Positions 1,788 to 8,141 of a stretch of 23,252 nt of DNA are shown here, piece after piece. The DNA is from a virus. Its lineage: Duplodnaviria; Heunggongvirae; Uroviricota; Caudoviricetes. The notes beneath the pieces were generated by a model, which was given only the letters and a program-made list of their open reading frames with translations, had not been told where the DNA came from and searched no databases. The position numbers were made by a program, and so were the translations under genes. Position 1 is the first letter of the stretch. Each line of letters opens with the position of its first letter. The stretch is from IMG/VR virus record IMGVR_UViG_3300029922_002860; one strand, written 5' to 3'.

Positions 1788-4406
1788 CTACGCGCACTGT
1801 TTGCGCACGGAGATGACTGGAAAGGTAACGGTAGTACGCTCGCCGGCACCGGCAAGTGTCTTCTCAGCGAGATCCTTGAACTTGGCGTCGTACCAGCTCA
1901 GCAGGATGGCCCACGCGGCATTGCTTGCGTAACACGAGGACGCATCGAGCCAATTCTCCCCAGAGGCAACCTTCGCCAGGTCCACGATCTTGTTTTTCTT
2001 CCCGCGCGTAACCGCCGTGTGGATCACGGCATCGCTCTCGGCGACAGTTTCGTCGTGGAACGGCACGCCAAAAGGCAGCGACTCCGAGGACCCGTCTCGC
2101 CACCCTCCGTTCAGGAGCGTCGCTGACTTTGCGGAGATCGAATATGCGCTGACCCCGATCTTCGCCAAAGCCGAGGGCAGGTAGCCTTGGGGCGTCAGCC
2201 TGCCGCCTAACTGGGCTAGCGTATAGAAATCCCGGGCCGGATGGCGGACGCTCCCCTTGCCGAAGATCGGGCCACCGCCGCCTATCACAACATGCCCTAC
2301 CCCGTTCGCCGCGCAGATGTCGGCAATCGACCGGGCAATCTTACGATAAAAACGCTTCCCCTCATTGGTGCGGTAAACGCCGAAATCCTTCATTTGCGCC
2401 CGGTTGACTTCCATGGGGATGAACCCCTTTGAAAGCCTCGACCCGCGCCCCTCGAACTCCTGGTCAAGAGAGTCTGCGTTGAAGTGGACGATCATGTCTT
2501 CGCGGCCGATGGTGTTCTTGAGCACGCGGCGGTTCCCGTTTACCGAAACCTGATTGGGATGCAGCGCCTCCTTGTGGGTTTCGCGAACAACGCGCTGGAA
2601 GGCGTAGGGTTCCCATCCGGTGGGTGCTTCACGATCTACGTTAACCTTCCTGAACATGGTCAAGGTCGCGACGCGGAGCCCGCCTGGGGATGCGTGTACG
2701 ACTGCGAGCAACTCTCCGTTCTGGACCGGCCGGAAACGCCCTGGCTTGAGATCCTGCTTGGCTTCCCGAGCCGCCGCTCTTTGAGCATACAGAGCCTTGC
2801 TCGACTCCAACGAGGCTTCCGCAATCTCGGGCATCACGGTAGCGGAGAAGCATCCAAACACCCGCTTTGCATCCCTGTCTTCTATGGTCAGCCTCAGCGC
2901 CTGAGCCTTGAAGAAAAGTTTGCGGCCTTCGGGGTCTCCCGGCATCGGAAGCGTGGCGTCCGGACGGAACTGCGTGGCCCCGTTTTTAACGTCGATTGCC
3001 TGTGGCAGCCGTGTCGCACGGTTTCCGGGTATGTTGCCACGAATGCGTGCCTCTACGAGGGCGGGGACGCTCATTTGCGCCGGTGCCTCGACTGGACGGT
3101 GCGCAGGGATATAGAGCGACACGTAGATGCAGTTGCTTGGTGCTCCCACCTGCGCCGCTTCCGCCAGCTCCCAACCGTACCGGTTATTGGGAAGCAGCGG
3201 GCTGAGTCCGGACGTGTCGGGAACCGACGGTATCGAGACAGGCCGCATAGCGGCGCAAAAGGCTCTTACCGGGCCAGTCACAAAGTCCTTGATGGCCTTC
3301 AGGGGAATATCCTTTTTGTCGGCTGCAATGATCCTGAGCCACCCCGCATGCTCCTCGGTGTCGCCAGGCTCCAACAGGTCGAGCTGCTCAGGGGGGAGGA
3401 GTCCGAATGCCGCCTGATGGAGGGCGAGAATGCGGCTTAGGACACCGCGGTCTCGCGCCAAGTCTTTCGGCTTGCTGCCTGCCGATGACAGGCGACGGAA
3501 GCGGTCGCTGGGGATGAACGGCGTCGGATCAGACTCAGGAAGGAGCGCGACGAATCGGGCAAGGATCGCAGGGTATTCATCCGCGCTTGCAAGGAACTCG
3601 GGCTCCTTCGGGTCAATTGGTTGCCACGCCGTGATGCCGGGACGAAGAAGAACTGCCCGCCACTGGCATGCGGAGATGACCTTTGAGGGAACCTTCTCGT
3701 CCCGAAGTTCCCGGCGCAGAACCGTGAAATAGCGGCTCGCCGAGTCCTGGGCGGCCTGGGTCATGAAGAATCGCTGGAATGGGTTAAAGAACGCGCCATG
3801 CTCCTTCATTAATCCCTGGACCGTGGCGGCGTGCTCCCTTGCCAGCGCACTTGCGCCCTCCTTGTTGGAAAGAAACGATTTGGCCGCGCCGGCAACTTGA
3901 ACGGACATCGTGCTTAGGATCGTCCCCAGATCAATGGCCCCGAATACAGTCTTGAACCACTCTTCAGTGATGGATGGGGGCTTGATGCCGTAGTGGTCAA
4001 GGACCAGCTTGTACGCGGTGCCGCCGCCAGTCTTCCTTGCTTCAGGGAAGACATAGCCACGCAGCATGATGTAGGCGTTCGATGACTTGAGTATGTCGTC
4101 CCACTTGCGACCGGCAATCCCTCCGTCCCCCGATAGGACGACATCCTTCCAGACCTGGGTATCGAGAATCGCCTGGGGAACCACCGAGGGATTCAGGAGG
4201 AGATAGATTGCCAGCCGGTCATCGCCCTCCACCGTGGCCATTGAGCAAAACGTCTCCAGCAGCGCCTTTGCAGTGGCGCTGAAGGTGCGGATGTAGGAGG
4301 TGAGCGTTCCGTATCCGTCTGGGGAAATCGGCGTCACCCGGCCCTTGAAGGCGGTCGAGTAGATGCGCCCGCAGTTGAGTTGGATTGGGGAAAGTTTATC
4401 GTTCAT
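1788..4406 (-). CDS. TnpB/Cas12-like (type V-like) effector, 872 aa, with apparently inactivated RuvC
   Basis: Long ORF abutting the array modules. N-terminal strand-helix (STAFKGRVTP...LTSYIRTF) resembles the WED/REC start of TnpB/Cas12. The C-terminal third has RuvC-like segments in the expected order: LLAVVHASPG (RuvC-I), RKIARSIADICAANGVGHVVIGGG (RuvC-II), ALAKIGVSAYSISAKSAT, and YASNAAWAILL (RuvC-III). Recognised by eye only. Confidence 0.75.
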   Translation of the reverse strand: MNDKLSPIQLNCGRIYSTAFKGRVTPISPDGYGTLTSYIRTFSATAKALLETFCSMATVEGDDRLAIYLLLNPSVVPQAILDTQVWKDVVLSGDGGIAGRKWDDILKSSNAYIMLRGYVFPEARKTGGGTAYKLVLDHYGIKPPSITEEWFKTVFGAIDLGTILSTMSVQVAGAAKSFLSNKEGASALAREHAATVQGLMKEHGAFFNPFQRFFMTQAAQDSASRYFTVLRRELRDEKVPSKVISACQWRAVLLRPGITAWQPIDPKEPEFLASADEYPAILARFVALLPESDPTPFIPSDRFRRLSSAGSKPKDLARDRGVLSRILALHQAAFGLLPPEQLDLLEPGDTEEHAGWLRIIAADKKDIPLKAIKDFVTGPVRAFCAAMRPVSIPSVPDTSGLSPLLPNNRYGWELAEAAQVGAPSNCIYVSLYIPAHRPVEAPAQMSVPALVEARIRGNIPGNRATRLPQAIDVKNGATQFRPDATLPMPGDPEGRKLFFKAQALRLTIEDRDAKRVFGCFSATVMPEIAEASLESSKALYAQRAAAREAKQDLKPGRFRPVQNGELLAVVHASPGGLRVATLTMFRKVNVDREAPTGWEPYAFQRVVRETHKEALHPNQVSVNGNRRVLKNTIGREDMIVHFNADSLDQEFEGRGSRLSKGFIPMEVNRAQMKDFGVYRTNEGKRFYRKIARSIADICAANGVGHVVIGGGGPIFGKGSVRHPARDFYTLAQLGGRLTPQGYLPSALAKIGVSAYSISAKSATLLNGGWRDGSSESLPFGVPFHDETVAESDAVIHTAVTRGKKNKIVDLAKVASGENWLDASSCYASNAAWAILLSWYDAKFKDLAEKTLAGAGERTTVTFPVISVRKQCA

Positions 4407-4432
4407 TGGATAGTTGAAGATGGGGCAAGGAG

Positions 4433-5245
4433 TCAGGCTGCGACAAAGTGTTGGAGTTCGTTCTCGGCCGTGCGCACGCGTTCAAGCTCTTCGCCTGCAA
4501 GGGCGGCCCTGATGCAACGAAGCCCTGCCTGGAGTAATGCCTCACGCGACCGGCCTTTCTCGGGCTTGGCGAGGTGCTCGAATTTGACCGCCGGATCGTT
4601 AGGCCCCCGGCGCTCAAAGTTCACGAGCCGCGTTGTAAATGCGACCGTGCCGGGGCGGTCCTTGCGGAGGCCCATCGTCAGCGCAAACAGCAGCGGGGCG
4701 CGGAGGCCCATTCGACTAAGCGCCCTGTAATGGCTCGCGAGGTAATCGAGTTCCGGTTGAAGCTCCTTTACGGCTACGACAACATCGTCCATCGAGAACC
4801 GCCTCAGTTTCTTCTCCGGGAACTTGACGTAGACCAGGAAGAGTTTTGCGACAGCCGCCCGCATGTCGCCATGCGTAAAACCATCCGCCTCCAAGAGTGA
4901 GCTGTCGCTCACGCGCGAACGCACGTCCACTGCGATCCTGCTTTCCGGGCTGAGGCCAAAGGCCACCTTCATCGTGACCGTGCGTCCGGCCTTTATGATG
5001 GCCATGAGTCGATGTTGCCCGTCAACGAGGACCCCGCGGCTATCGAACGCGACGCCATCCGCCAAGTTTGCCCAACGCCCTGCAAGGATCTCCTCCGTGA
5101 AGAAAGTGATGTCCGTCTCCTTTGTGTCACGGTTCTGCTTGTTCTGCCTTAGCATGGTGAGCGCCAAGTCCGGGCTCACGGCCAACTCAAATTCCACCAG
5201 AATCTTGCTGTGCAGGTTCTCGGTAAAGACTCGGGTGGCGTTCAT
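4433..5245 (-). CDS. ParB-like N-terminal (DGQHR) domain protein, 270 aa
   Basis: VSPDLALTMLRQNKQNR...GRW...GVAFDSRGVLVDGQHRLMAIIKAGRTV pattern typical of phage ParB-like proteins, with an intact GxxR. ATGA overlap with the upstream paralogue. Confidence 0.8.
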   Translation of the reverse strand: MNATRVFTENLHSKILVEFELAVSPDLALTMLRQNKQNRDTKETDITFFTEEILAGRWANLADGVAFDSRGVLVDGQHRLMAIIKAGRTVTMKVAFGLSPESRIAVDVRSRVSDSSLLEADGFTHGDMRAAVAKLFLVYVKFPEKKLRRFSMDDVVVAVKELQPELDYLASHYRALSRMGLRAPLLFALTMGLRKDRPGTVAFTTRLVNFERRGPNDPAVKFEHLAKPEKGRSREALLQAGLRCIRAALAGEELERVRTAENELQHFVAA

Positions 5246-6033
5246 GTGACGGCCTCCACGGTCTGAAGTTCAATACCTGCGCGAGCTAGCAGGTGCAGGC
5301 GGACGCTCTCCGGCTTATCGGAGTCCTCGATGCCGCAATAGGCGGCGACTACAGAAAGAGCGCTTTCAAAGCGCTCGCGGCCGCTCAGCTTGTGATAGTC
5401 CTCCCCCATGCGCCGGCGATAAGCGAGCACCCTTCGACTCGCCTCGGAGCGATCAAACAACTCGGCCAAAAACTGGCGGACCTTCTCTTTGTAACCATGC
5501 CCAACGAGGGCGAGCACGACGGCGGCCTTTGCGGCATTGCTCCAATAGGGGCCGCTGGCAAGCGTTCCTTTGACGGCCGTCACTTCGTCTACAGCCTCGT
5601 GGAAGATCGCGTGTGCGGCCTCCACGTTGAGAGGGTTCGAGGAGTTCTCGCCTTTGACGTAGAGGATAACTGCATTCAGTACCGGAGCCTCCACCCTCGC
5701 CGTATTGACCCTGCACACGGCACGGAGGACATCCTTCGAGTTGCGAGGCCGCCCGCGGCCGTACTTGTTTAGCGTGTCCGGATCTGCATCGCGGGTGACC
5801 TTCACCTCAACGGTGCTTTGTGATTCGCCGATGGCCGCCAAGAGTTCGCCTCCAGAGATGAGGCGCCCGAGCTTGTCGATGACGACTCCCTGGTGGGTCG
5901 GTTGCCAGCGCCCGTTGCGAATCAAATCGCTATAGTTCTTAATCGAACGCCTGTTGAGTCGCAACCCAGCCGGAAGTTTTGAAAGCAGCTGTTCCGCCGC
6001 TAATGGGTCGATGCTTTGTGTCTTAAGAGCCAT
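5242..6033 (-). CDS. ParB-like paralogue with degenerate motif, 263 aa
   Basis: IDPLAAEQLL...LNRRSIKNYSDLIRNGRWQPTHQGVVIDKLGRLISGGELLAAI aligns with the neighbour, but DGQHRL is replaced by SGGELL. Confidence 0.72.
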   Translation of the reverse strand: MALKTQSIDPLAAEQLLSKLPAGLRLNRRSIKNYSDLIRNGRWQPTHQGVVIDKLGRLISGGELLAAIGESQSTVEVKVTRDADPDTLNKYGRGRPRNSKDVLRAVCRVNTARVEAPVLNAVILYVKGENSSNPLNVEAAHAIFHEAVDEVTAVKGTLASGPYWSNAAKAAVVLALVGHGYKEKVRQFLAELFDRSEASRRVLAYRRRMGEDYHKLSGRERFESALSVVAAYCGIEDSDKPESVRLHLLARAGIELQTVEAVT

Positions 6034-6042
6034 AATATAGAA

Positions 6043-6053
6043 TTTGTATGGGA
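6043..6053 (-). promoter_or_regulatory. CCCATAC-type motif upstream of the ParB-ParB-Cas12-like operon (second copy CCCATAAT at about 6098-6106)
   Basis: Minus strand TCCCATACAAAT about 12 nt before ATG 6033; same motif family as upstream of many other genes. Confidence 0.45.
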
Positions 6054-6199: not shown

Positions 6200-7159
6200 T
6201 CAGCGGTAGATGGCGTTCAGGATGTCCGCCAGGCGCATTCCTGCCTCGGCGATCTGGCGGGACATGACCGGCGCCTCGCGCTCTGCATAACCCTCCGGCA
6301 GTCGGATCATGATCTTGTGGAGACGGAGCGCGGGATGCCCCTGCCCCCTTGAAACATCCGCGCGTAAAAACTCTATTCCTTCGTAAGCCTGCGTCCCTAA
6401 GACAACGCTCTCAGAAGCCCAGACTGTTGGCCAATGGTGAAAGTCGCCGCCCGTTTCCATGTGAGCGGCCCCGTATTGGCGCATTGCCGTTGCCGCCAGA
6501 GTCCGGTAATCCGTGCCGCTAGAAATCTTCTTCAGCAGGACGGTGTCGAAATACTCGTGCAACTCCTCTGATTTGGTGAAGAAGAGCGCGTTCCCGCCGG
6601 CGTCACCTGGAGAGACTGCCGTAACTTCGCTTGGCGACAGAAGCCGCGGCCTCTCGGGGTCGCTCAGGTCGAAATACCCTGTGATGCAGTGAAGAGGTTG
6701 CGAAATGTCTCCGACACAGTGAATCAAGACACGGGCCGCCTCAGATTGTGAAAGACCAGTTTGGCGCCCGTCGAGAGTTGCTACTGCAAGCGCGATGGCA
6801 TGCGCCACATCGTTCTTGGACGCGTAGAGTTGCGCGTTCGGGTTGTACGAAGTTTCGCCGACAGGGACGTTAACAAAATGCCACTTCGTCGAGCCGGGAA
6901 AGCGGTGGATAAAATCCTTGGCTTCCGCGTCACCTTTCATTTCGCCGCGGTTCTGGCCTGCTGCGCGCACCTCATCGAGCCATGTGGATGCCGATACCAT
7001 GTCGGTTGTCCCCAGGGCCTTTGTGATGCCCGCGCCAGCCTCCGGAGTCAGGTGCTCCTGTGCGATCAACGCGATGGCCCGATGCCCCTCGGCGCCGAAG
7101 CCGAACGCGTTTACGGTCACTGCTAAGGCGAGAAGGATCGAGGTTACGGAATGTCTCAT
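6200..7159 (-). CDS. S1/P1 nuclease family protein with signal peptide (start revised to ATG 7159, 319 aa)
   Basis: MRHSVTSILLALAVTVNAFG signal-like N-terminus, then FGAEGH, STWLDEVR, WHFVN, IHCVGDISQPLH and LHEYFD zinc-ligand motifs of the S1/P1 family. Confidence 0.88.
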   Translation of the reverse strand: MRHSVTSILLALAVTVNAFGFGAEGHRAIALIAQEHLTPEAGAGITKALGTTDMVSASTWLDEVRAAGQNRGEMKGDAEAKDFIHRFPGSTKWHFVNVPVGETSYNPNAQLYASKNDVAHAIALAVATLDGRQTGLSQSEAARVLIHCVGDISQPLHCITGYFDLSDPERPRLLSPSEVTAVSPGDAGGNALFFTKSEELHEYFDTVLLKKISSGTDYRTLAATAMRQYGAAHMETGGDFHHWPTVWASESVVLGTQAYEGIEFLRADVSRGQGHPALRLHKIMIRLPEGYAEREAPVMSRQIAEAGMRLADILNAIYR

Positions 7160-7172
7160 GGGTTGAAGATGG

Positions 7173-8141
7173 TCACGCGAAGGTAAGCTCCCCCTGCCTT
7201 GGTCGCGGTAGGGGCGGCAGAACTTGGGGGGCAGGAGGCGGAATTTCGGGGGCATGGGCTTCGACCTTGGGTCGCACGACCGCATCACGCCCGAAATCCT
7301 CCGCAAACTGGCTCCATATCGAGGCGGCATCGAGGCAGTTGAGTTGCTCCAGTCGTTCGAGGACCTTGGGAAGATCGTTCCCGGCCTGCGGCTTCAACCC
7401 CGCGATGAGGTTCGGGCGAATCAACCTGAAGTTCAGGGCCATCTCAGTCGCCGCTCGCTCACGGGGCCAATTCTTCTTATTGGCCACGAGGTCCACCAGT
7501 TGCTCGTCATCCGGCTCCCCGGAAAGCAAGCTCACGGCTGTCACTGGGCCGATCCCCTCAATGCCAGGAGTGTTGTCGGTCACATCGCCCACCAACGAGA
7601 GGTAGCGGTCCATCTGGGAAGGAGGCACTCCGAAGTCCTCCTTTACCGTTGCTGCATCGCAGCGCTTCCAGCCCCCTGTTATGGGGATGAGCCACGTGAC
7701 GTTGTCCCCTACGACCTGGGAGTAATCCTTGTCGTGGGTCGCGATCAGCACTTCCACCCCAGCCCGACCCTTTGCGACCGTTGCGAGGCTCATTAGCAAA
7801 TCGTCGCACTCCTGCCCTTCCTGGTGGACGTACTCAGCTCCAGAGTCCCTAATGAAGGACTCCACGACCGGGATCTGCTGGGCAAGCTCGGGGGCTTTGG
7901 GCTTCCTGAGCGCCTTGTACTCGGGGTAGAACCCGCGTCGGAAATCGCTCCCTCCGTCGAGGCCGAAGATTACCCGGTTCGGCTCAGTAAAACGAATGAG
8001 GTTCGCGAGCATCGTGGCGCTCTTGGCCACCGCGTTTGTAGGGAAGCCCGAGCATCGCCGGATCGTCATGCCCTTGAGGGCTGTGACGTGATAGGCGCGG
8101 TGGACTAGGTTGCTCCAATCAACTAAGAGTATGCGGTTCAC
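7173..8141 (-). CDS. 5'-3' exonuclease / flap endonuclease (Pol I N-terminal-like); start revised to GTG 8141, 322 aa
   Basis: LLVDWSNLVHRAYH, FGLDGGSDFRRGFYPEYKALR, ECDDLL, THDKDY, LVGDVTDNTPGIEGIGPVTA (H3TH). GTG follows the conserved upstream motif at 8145-8160. Confidence 0.92.
   Translation of the reverse strand: MNRILLVDWSNLVHRAYHVTALKGMTIRRCSGFPTNAVAKSATMLANLIRFTEPNRVIFGLDGGSDFRRGFYPEYKALRKPKAPELAQQIPVVESFIRDSGAEYVHQEGQECDDLLMSLATVAKGRAGVEVLIATHDKDYSQVVGDNVTWLIPITGGWKRCDAATVKEDFGVPPSQMDRYLSLVGDVTDNTPGIEGIGPVTAVSLLSGEPDDEQLVDLVANKKNWPRERAATEMALNFRLIRPNLIAGLKPQAGNDLPKVLERLEQLNCLDAASIWSQFAEDFGRDAVVRPKVEAHAPEIPPPAPQVLPPLPRPRQGELTFA

Follow-up and report, generated by a model that had tools for sequence, protein, structure and literature searches.

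A pair of adjacent genes, P0001 and P0002, lying directly upstream of a Cas12/TnpB-like effector gene (P0003), very probably belongs to the CRISPR locus of a virus in the Caudoviricetes (IMG/VR record IMGVR_UViG_3300029922_002860; the whole 23,252-nucleotide (nt) stretch analyzed is called the window here), and the system to which this locus belongs is a rare one. Profile matches and structural models assign both proteins to the DGQHR branch of the ParB/sulfiredoxin (Srx) superfamily rather than to canonical ParB, and each has lost motifs that the other has kept. The anatomy of the locus, the family and fold of the proteins, their reciprocal motifs, their exclusive linkage to the effector and their presence in peat RNA libraries are established directly, while a heterodimer with a composite site is predicted from models.

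The link between the pair and the effector is not incidental. An exhaustive HMMER search returned 38 effector-family representatives, divided between a close clade (41-52% identity) and a distant clade (23-30%), and the order degenerate gene, intact gene, effector recurs in four of the five close-clade lineages: the window's element, found as many identical copies in peat samples; L007/L008/L017; L011/L012/L013/L021; and L020/L024, from a contig of an Opitutaceae metagenome-assembled genome (MAG). All three genes diverge in step between lineages (39-53% identity), and their upstream neighbors are unrelated: an S1/P1 nuclease gene in the window and, elsewhere, a resolvase gene with TnpB, PcfJ, or MoxR with DUF2201 (L020). 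The gap between pair and effector measures 26 (window), 40, 7 (L011) and 23 nt. The P0002 clade contains cassette members only, among 5.8 billion proteins, and the P0001 search gave two matches in all, with the P0001 clade likewise confined to cassettes. A scan of 185,579 species-representative genomes yielded 80 fetched loci of the wider family, phrog_5931; a degenerate partner was present in 1 of the 80 loci, the effector-bearing one, while 76 held a single copy and 3 held two intact copies. When the close-clade effector alignment was used to look for related loci, Joint Genome Institute (JGI) metagenomes gave three, whereas neither species genomes nor IMG/VR gave any.

The first-pass annotation of the window, made from its letters alone, had proposed gene-neighborhood conservation as a check and had allowed that the linkage might be incidental; because the cassette recurs at such divergence, among unrelated flanks and with exclusivity in both directions, that possibility can be set aside. 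A phage-derived selfish or unrelated pair hitch-hiking beside the effector by chance would suit a mostly phage-borne family and the promoter-like word ahead of the effector, but besides its conservation in four lineages the cassette has a gap of only 7 nt in one of them, where the pair also sits between array and effector, and we consider this explanation the least credible of those weighed here. In L011, L012 and L013 the CRISPR array precedes the pair on its upstream side, with repeats of the same family in the same orientation, whereas in L007 the scaffold-array modules lie downstream, as in the window. The upstream arrays (L012:3994-4225, L013:5-298 and L011:20-184) have 38-nt repeats ending GCAGAAC with a period of 62-67 nt, and their repeat number varies between samples. 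The three loci with two intact copies (L031, L051 and L063, from Planctomycetes MAGs) carry two family genes 1-2 kb apart, each with DGQ[HQ]R intact, and are possible intermediates or independent duplications.

Both proteins match the hidden Markov model of phrog_5931 (P0002, E 4.2e-36, residues 22-261; P0001, E 1.3e-16, residues 4-199), a DGQHR branch of the ParB/Srx fold that is carried mostly by phages and has no known function, which tblastn located in 82 phage records (81 at a single place) and 16 plasmids. The first-pass annotation had called the two paralogues, which is true at the level of the family only; a direct BLAST comparison of the two gives no significant match (E 32), and their clades are not sisters in the family tree. 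A tree uniting them is not rejected (approximately unbiased test, p 0.15), and tandem duplication as the pair's origin is neither shown nor rejected by the family tree. Pfam searches at E up to 1 assigned no family, ParB_N (PF02195) included, to P0001, P0002 or the orthologues P0007, P0008 and P0034, and PADLOC gave no match for P0001 or P0002.

AlphaFold models of the two proteins are confident (predicted local distance difference test, pLDDT, 92 for P0002 and 89 for P0001), and in both an N-terminal domain of ~100 residues with the ParB/Srx fold is followed by a C-terminal helical domain of ~160 residues. Residues 19-111 of P0002 align with the CDP-bound ParB of M. xanthus (7bnk; Z 6.5, root-mean-square deviation (rmsd) 3.0, 86 residues), its top 24 structural rows are all of the ParB/Noc/KorB/PadC/Srx/SbnI type, and its best Foldseek match is 6sdk (probability 0.98); residues 1-97 of P0001 match Srx (6ky4, Z 6.3), PadC (Z 5.3) and KorB (Z 4.9). 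Although these Z values are moderate, we assign the modeled N-domains to the ParB/Srx fold because the match list is uniform and GxxR stands at the right place. The earlier proposal of a ParB/KorB-type N-terminal domain with GxxR, a phosphate-binding motif, thus stands for the fold and for P0002, in which, as in its orthologues, the motif reads DGQ[HQ]R; it does not extend to P0001 and its orthologues, which lack the arginine. When P0002 was extended into its helical region the alignments were poor (KorB, 170 residues, rmsd 6.8, Z 5.5; Noc, 129 residues, rmsd 6.0). Whole-length look-alikes (TM 0.74-0.80 over ~255 residues) are tailed-phage proteins of ~270-300 amino acids (aa), some of them labeled 'DGQHR domain-containing'. 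A profile search of the PDB found nothing significant. With phmmer against the PDB, residues 50-110 of P0002 (4916-5098) matched 'Pizza' designed beta-propellers (E ~1e-6); we reject this match because the P0002 model is not a propeller, and ascribe it to the GVAFDSRGVLVD stretch behaving much like low-complexity sequence, though it could mislead automatic annotation.

Reciprocal motif loss differentiates the two genes of the pair. Four motifs mark the N-domain in the consensus of the family: NxxNR, THQG, DGQHR and DxGxxRxxxDxL. The P0002 clade retains NxxNR and DGQ[HQ]R, with [LIV]ADG standing in for THQG, while the P0001 clade retains THQG, has lost NxxNR and shows SG[GAM][ED][LI] for DGQHR; the fourth motif is divided between the proteins, P0001 having its GxxRxxxDxL part. 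This pattern is identical in all four cassette lineages, both in the degenerate orthologues (P0032, P0034 and P0075, with SG[GAM][ED][LI] and THQG) and in the intact ones (P0007, P0008 and P0076, with DGQ[HQ]R and NxxNR). Between lineages the degenerate copy is 39-51% identical and the intact copy 45-53%; the degenerate copy is conserved like the intact one and is therefore under selection rather than decaying.

Structure prediction suggests what this division of motifs could serve. The predicted complex of P0001 and P0002 scored 0.76, and the best of three controls scored 0.00; of 80 solved complexes 58 attain the mark applied, as do 2 of 110 mismatched pairs, a calibration that holds roughly for the author-made alignments used here. 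At least 96% of contacts agreed between runs, with a partner pLDDT of at least 87. In the model the interface joins N-domain to N-domain almost entirely, face to face and with pseudo-two-fold symmetry: T46 and H47 of the P0001 THQG loop contact A66, V74, D75, K93, A95 and L98 in the DGQHR pocket of P0002, and the mirror contacts run from L61 and A62 of P0002 to V51, S60, K78, T80 and D83 of P0001. Read together with the motif table, this interface points to one intact composite site and a second site dismantled on both sides, and we think it probable, though well short of certain, that P0001 and P0002 form a heterodimer with one live site.

The junctions of the cassette also suggest joint production (Table 1). 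On the minus strand the P0002 ATG and the P0001 TGA share 4 nt, and the same 4-nt overlap is found in L011 (ATGA) and L007 (GTGA), thus in three lineages including the window, implying, as far as gene layout can, translational coupling of the pair. This overlap, the presence of DGQHR and SGGEL at one site and the distance of 26 nt to the effector had all been noted in the first-pass annotation, and open reading frames (ORFs) and alignment bear them out: SGGEL of P0001 and DGQHR of P0002 occupy one alignment column, and the P0002 stop ends at 4433 while P0003 starts at 4406. The S1/P1 nuclease, 5'-3' exonuclease and HATPase_c genes ahead of the cassette (6200-7330 and upstream) occur in the window's element only and lie outside the conserved module.

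Table 1. Positions of the cassette, its motifs and its guide modules in the window.
Feature	Position	Strand	Remarks
CCCATAC word	6046-6052	minus	13 nt upstream of P0001 ATG; candidate element-type promoter of cassette
Degenerate ParB/Srx-fold gene P0001, 263 aa	5242-6033	minus	THQG kept; SGGEL in place of DGQHR
P0001 THQG loop	5887-5898	minus	
P0001 SGGEL	5842-5856	minus	
ATGA stop/start overlap, P0001/P0002	5242-5245	minus	junction = CACATGAAC
Motif-intact ParB/Srx-fold gene P0002, 270 aa	4433-5245	minus	NKQNR and DGQHR; LADG replaces THQG loop
P0002 NKQNR	5129-5143	minus	
P0002 DGQHR	5009-5023	minus	
P0002-effector spacer, 26 nt	4407-4432	minus	CCCCATCTT inside, 4417-4425; possible internal promoter
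Cas12/TnpB-like effector gene P0003, 872 aa	1788-4406	minus	
Four scaffold + mini-array CRISPR modules	1-1772	minus	36-nt repeats, period ~66 nt, 14 spacers

Judging by its sequence, the effector seems to be a Cas12-like protein unable to cut DNA. No acidic residue is invariant in the C-terminal half across 17 family members, the nearest Atlas clusters are Cas12a, Cas12b and TnpB (a lead only), and CRISPR arrays with related repeats adjoin the effector gene in three lineages; the premise of a dead effector agrees with all three observations. Alternatively, the pair could supply the missing activity, with the heterodimer recruited to the R-loop by the effector and cutting or nicking in place of the dead RuvC. 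The domain's historical name, 'ParB-like nuclease', under which one phage homologue is annotated, recalls such a role, as do the ParB/Srx-fold DUF262 proteins (DGQQR, like P0007) that drive nucleases in GmrSD, BrxU and SspE, which are among the structural matches at low Z; an effector family with no invariant acidic residue in its C-terminal half would leave room for it. However, no HNH, PD-(D/E)xK or DUF1524 domain is fused or adjacent, and well-studied members of the fold (ParB, Noc, KorB and Srx) bind and hydrolyze nucleotides rather than cleave DNA, making a substitute nuclease rather improbable.

The scaffold and mini-array modules are the guide RNA genes of the system, and the guide arrays were identical in every sample compared. 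Such constancy could indicate a programmable centromere, in which effector and guide would mark the giant element's own sites and the pair would be the partner of the element's orphan ParA. We find this very improbable given that none of the spacers has a match in the element's 23 kb analyzed here, that the cassette is flanked by no ParA-like gene in all four lineages and that no ParA-stimulating N-terminal peptide is evident. Nor is it any easier to credit the pair with making, duplicating or processing the scaffold-array modules as an aid to adaptation or recombination. The loci contain no cas1, cas2 or cas4 adaptation genes, and the modules are duplicated and rearranged, as in an RNA-library contig joining position 665 to 1275, but no precedent is known for the ParB/Srx fold in processing RNA or acquiring spacers, all samples share one spacer content and the distant clade lacks such genes; we give this role scarcely any weight. 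The joined contig (run X2, depth 8.4) skips 609 nt, carries four extra G and differs from the window at 8 positions, and probably comes from a variant of the element that has one module fewer, or from recombination between modules.

Four peat and permafrost metatranscriptome runs yielded error-free contigs of the locus. The highest depth was over the guide modules (1-1772, run X1), P0001 was covered by RNA-library contigs in three studies, and one such contig (4210-4540) spans the P0002-effector junction in the window's element; gaps between contigs (e.g., 4709-5564) carry no interpretation. There is no terminator-like hairpin in the 26-nt spacer or at either gene junction, and such sites are at chance level overall. 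Pair and effector may be at least partly co-transcribed. The first-pass annotation had suggested that the effector may have a promoter of its own. Part of this holds, since CCCCATCTT does stand ahead of the effector and L007 has a comparable word, CCCCATCCTT, ahead of its own; yet the 7-nt gap in L011 leaves no room for a promoter before the effector, and in the window's element a contig bridges the junction. A wider word, ATTATCCCATA[CT]AAA, upstream of the first gene is common to the window and L011.

The position of the pair at the 5' end of the cassette, beside promoter-like words, could also relate to regulation of the locus itself, with the pair acting as a DNA-binding autoregulator of effector and guide-module transcription and not at guide targets. 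The DGQHR protein DndB represses the dnd operon. Weak matches to Pfam DndB (PF14072) occur in 4 of 27 family members (best E 0.0033), P0002 weakly matches the NCBIfam model TIGR03187 DGQHR (E 0.014), some phage homologues are annotated as helix-turn-helix (HTH) DNA-binding proteins, and the pairless lineage nested in the close clade has a sigma-factor gene upstream. These DndB and DGQHR matches are nevertheless far below cut-offs (for TIGR03187, 15.2 against 58.85 bits), a heterodimer with one kept nucleotide pocket is not obviously needed for autoregulation, and the pair stays with the effector when the array shifts from downstream to upstream. We therefore regard a locus regulator as unlikely, if less so than a substitute nuclease.

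The reading that we favor, tentatively and at somewhat under even confidence, makes the pair a heterodimeric accessory that serves a non-cutting RNA-guided binder as a nucleotide switch and acts at guide-specified DNA. The N-domains of P0001 and P0002 would pair face to face; P0002 would give the sole intact nucleotide pocket, formed by NxxNR (corresponding to NPxQPR of ParB) and DGQHR (corresponding to GERR), and P0001 the sole intact THQG loop, reaching into that pocket, with the second, symmetric site lost on both chains. Translational coupling and at least partial co-transcription would ensure that the pair is made with the effector. As to how the pair touches the effector, which nucleotide it uses and what results on DNA, we infer the following: a nucleotide-gated switch would convert RNA-guided binding into a non-cleaving outcome, whether occlusion, silencing or bridging of the target replicon. 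The pair may thus supply what the RNA-guided binder does at its targets; that the two act together on target DNA is plausible, though we hold this with more doubt than conviction.

A bolder version was put forward in the first-pass annotation, in which the RNA-guided protein replaces parS as the loading site of a spreading clamp gated by cytidine triphosphate (CTP). Our data do not support a clamp of that kind: the proteins belong to the DGQHR branch, whole-chain structural matches show no clear HTH or C-terminal dimerization domain in P0001 or P0002, neither ParA nor parS is found nearby, and one pocket of two is intact. We consider it unlikely, although still worth stating, that effector and guide form an RNA-programmable ParB, replacing parS/OB as the loading or anchoring point for the single-pocket heterodimer. 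Such a module would clamp, spread along or bridge the targeted DNA, leading to long-range silencing or replicon positioning.

Several results weigh against a nucleotide switch acting at guide-specified DNA. The catalytic glutamate of GERR is replaced by glutamine in P0002 (Q77) and in all orthologues, the equivalence of Q77 to E93 of M. xanthus ParB being deduced from the structural alignment, in which the two numberings are offset by 16-18 residues. NxxNR sits at the NPxQPR position, but no ENLQR-like box III is evident, and DVRSRVSD fills the helix that follows. The phrog_5931 family has no known nucleotide specificity, and the C-terminal ~160 helical residues have no clear structural match that would point to DNA binding. 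The favorable complex score may stem from resemblance to ParB N-domain dimers of known structure rather than from binding between P0001 and P0002 themselves. Neither the 14 spacers of the window nor the 8 of L007 showed a match beyond chance in the window or the fetched loci, and three 24-nt spacer seeds had no exact match in viral_contigs; these negatives cover those sets, and targets may lie elsewhere. The RNA-library contigs are strandless, are not proof of a single transcript and may derive from DNA, so that they are supportive only, and the promoter-like word between pair and effector in the window and L007, if functional, allows separate expression.

Effectors without the pair also count against this reading. 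The first-pass annotation had named effector homologues that generally lack these neighbors as the finding that would tell against it, and this is the situation in the distant clade, where four sampled contexts contain no ParB-family ORF, but not in the close clade, where the P0037/P0039 lineage (L018) alone is pairless. In the effector tree the close clade has a support of 100, the cassette-bearing L020 branches first and the P0037/P0039 lineage is nested within; the pair is therefore probably, so far as the tree can tell, ancestral to the close clade and was lost in the P0037/P0039 lineage.

In L018 (1573-2268) and the JGI contig of P0037, a sigma28/FliA-like gene (P0073, 231 aa; PDB 1rp3, E 5e-14) lies 308 nt upstream of the effector, with an inverted repeat and T-run between, which makes for a loose link. 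Its position upstream of a P0037-type effector recalls rpoE-dcas12f operons. We considered a swap of this gene for the pair in the same slot and downgraded it because of the 308-nt distance, the hairpin and the T-run, and because the sigma gene of L020 is unrelated to P0073. In L020 (353-4117) the genes upstream of the cassette include that sigma-70 family gene (285 aa), DUF2201 and a MoxR-type AAA_5. In two stretches of P0003, residues ~26-65 and 758-807 (~4212-4331 and 1986-2135), most positions that are invariant in the three full-length ParB-linked effectors are changed in the sigma-linked P0037, which keeps 4 of 11 and 3 of 11 of them; the stretches are weak candidate docking surfaces, drawn from too few sequences to serve as evidence. 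The element of L021 otherwise resembles L011, but its effector P0038 (754-2865) has 703 aa against 879 aa in L011; since the alignment falls into two stretches, P0038 may be a variant with an internal deletion. In the distant clade, the effector P0045 (859 aa; ~6001-8580 of L015/L016, GCA_900151665.1) is surrounded by four genes matching Pfam AcrVA2-like (PF26125), HipA_C and a metallophosphatase; for the gene of a dead-Cas12-like protein, so many anti-CRISPR-like neighbors are odd company.

The closest parallel is found in tandem interspaced guide RNA (TIGR) systems, in which a ParB-like gene, TasParB, is conserved in operons with the nuclease-less TasA; TasParB is a single gene of unknown function with a predicted C-terminal homodimer (Faure et al., Science 2025; PMC12045711). 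As in the cassettes described here, a ParB-like gene, a nuclease-less RNA-guided binder and guide arrays occur together, with variable flanks and array position. The binders differ (a Nop-domain Tas protein versus a Cas12/TnpB-like effector), as do the guides (TIGR repeats versus CRISPR repeats with a scaffold), and in place of one gene there are two, which have lost motifs reciprocally and whose products are predicted to pair through their N-domains, the two systems being likened by description.

Among nuclease-dead type V systems, dCas12f works through a recruited sigma factor whose gene lies just upstream (Hoffmann et al., Nature 2026; PMC13472631). It shares with the present system a nuclease-dead type V effector, an accessory gene directly upstream, chimeric scaffold-guide genes and mini-arrays. 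The accessory, however, is a sigma factor that recruits RNA polymerase rather than a ParB/Srx-fold predicted heterodimer, and dCas12f is a miniature Cas12f, whereas the effector here has ~870 aa; 'ParB' is absent from that paper (PMC13472631). The inactivated type V-C, V-M and Cas12b3 systems are plasmid-borne, with an inactivated RuvC, mini-arrays and presumed binding-only interference, and a ParB-like accessory is not among what their survey describes (0 occurrences of 'ParB' in the text; Makarova et al. 2025, PMC12669027). In the searchable literature, no ParB-like accessory is described for any type V locus. Two elements are thus new, namely that the partner is Cas12-like and that the predicted heterodimer is encoded by two genes with reciprocal degeneration.

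Compared with canonical ParB, KorB and Noc clamps, the pair shares the N-domain fold (Z 5.5-6.5), the place of GxxR and NxxNR at NPxQPR, and the predicted engagement of its N-domains resembles the nucleotide-locked ParB dimer. It differs in the glutamine at the GERR glutamate and in that no box III, clear HTH, parS or ParA was found; it also looks like an obligate heterodimer with one dead pocket and has no Pfam ParB_N match. Phage and prophage members of phrog_5931 are single-copy and carry THQG, NxxNR and DGQHR in one chain, whereas here the three are split over two. The pair therefore looks like natural subfunctionalization, in which a presumably homodimeric phage family gave rise to an asymmetric heterodimer with exactly one composite site.

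Nuclease-dead relatives of CRISPR effectors and TnpB are emerging as natural RNA-guided regulators, and their output is set by what is recruited: a transposase, a sigma factor or, in the case of a roadblock, nothing. With a conserved ParB-like heterodimer these regulators would gain a further class of output, one that would join RNA guidance to nucleotide-switch machinery for organizing, silencing and segregating bacterial DNA. The independent association of TasParB with TasA suggests that the pairing of ParB-like proteins with RNA-guided binders is not a one-off; if an RNA-programmable ParB proved true, two unrelated RNA-guided systems would have converged on the same solution. Should the module act beyond the site where it is bound, compact silencers that can be programmed, or tools for positioning DNA, could be modeled on it.

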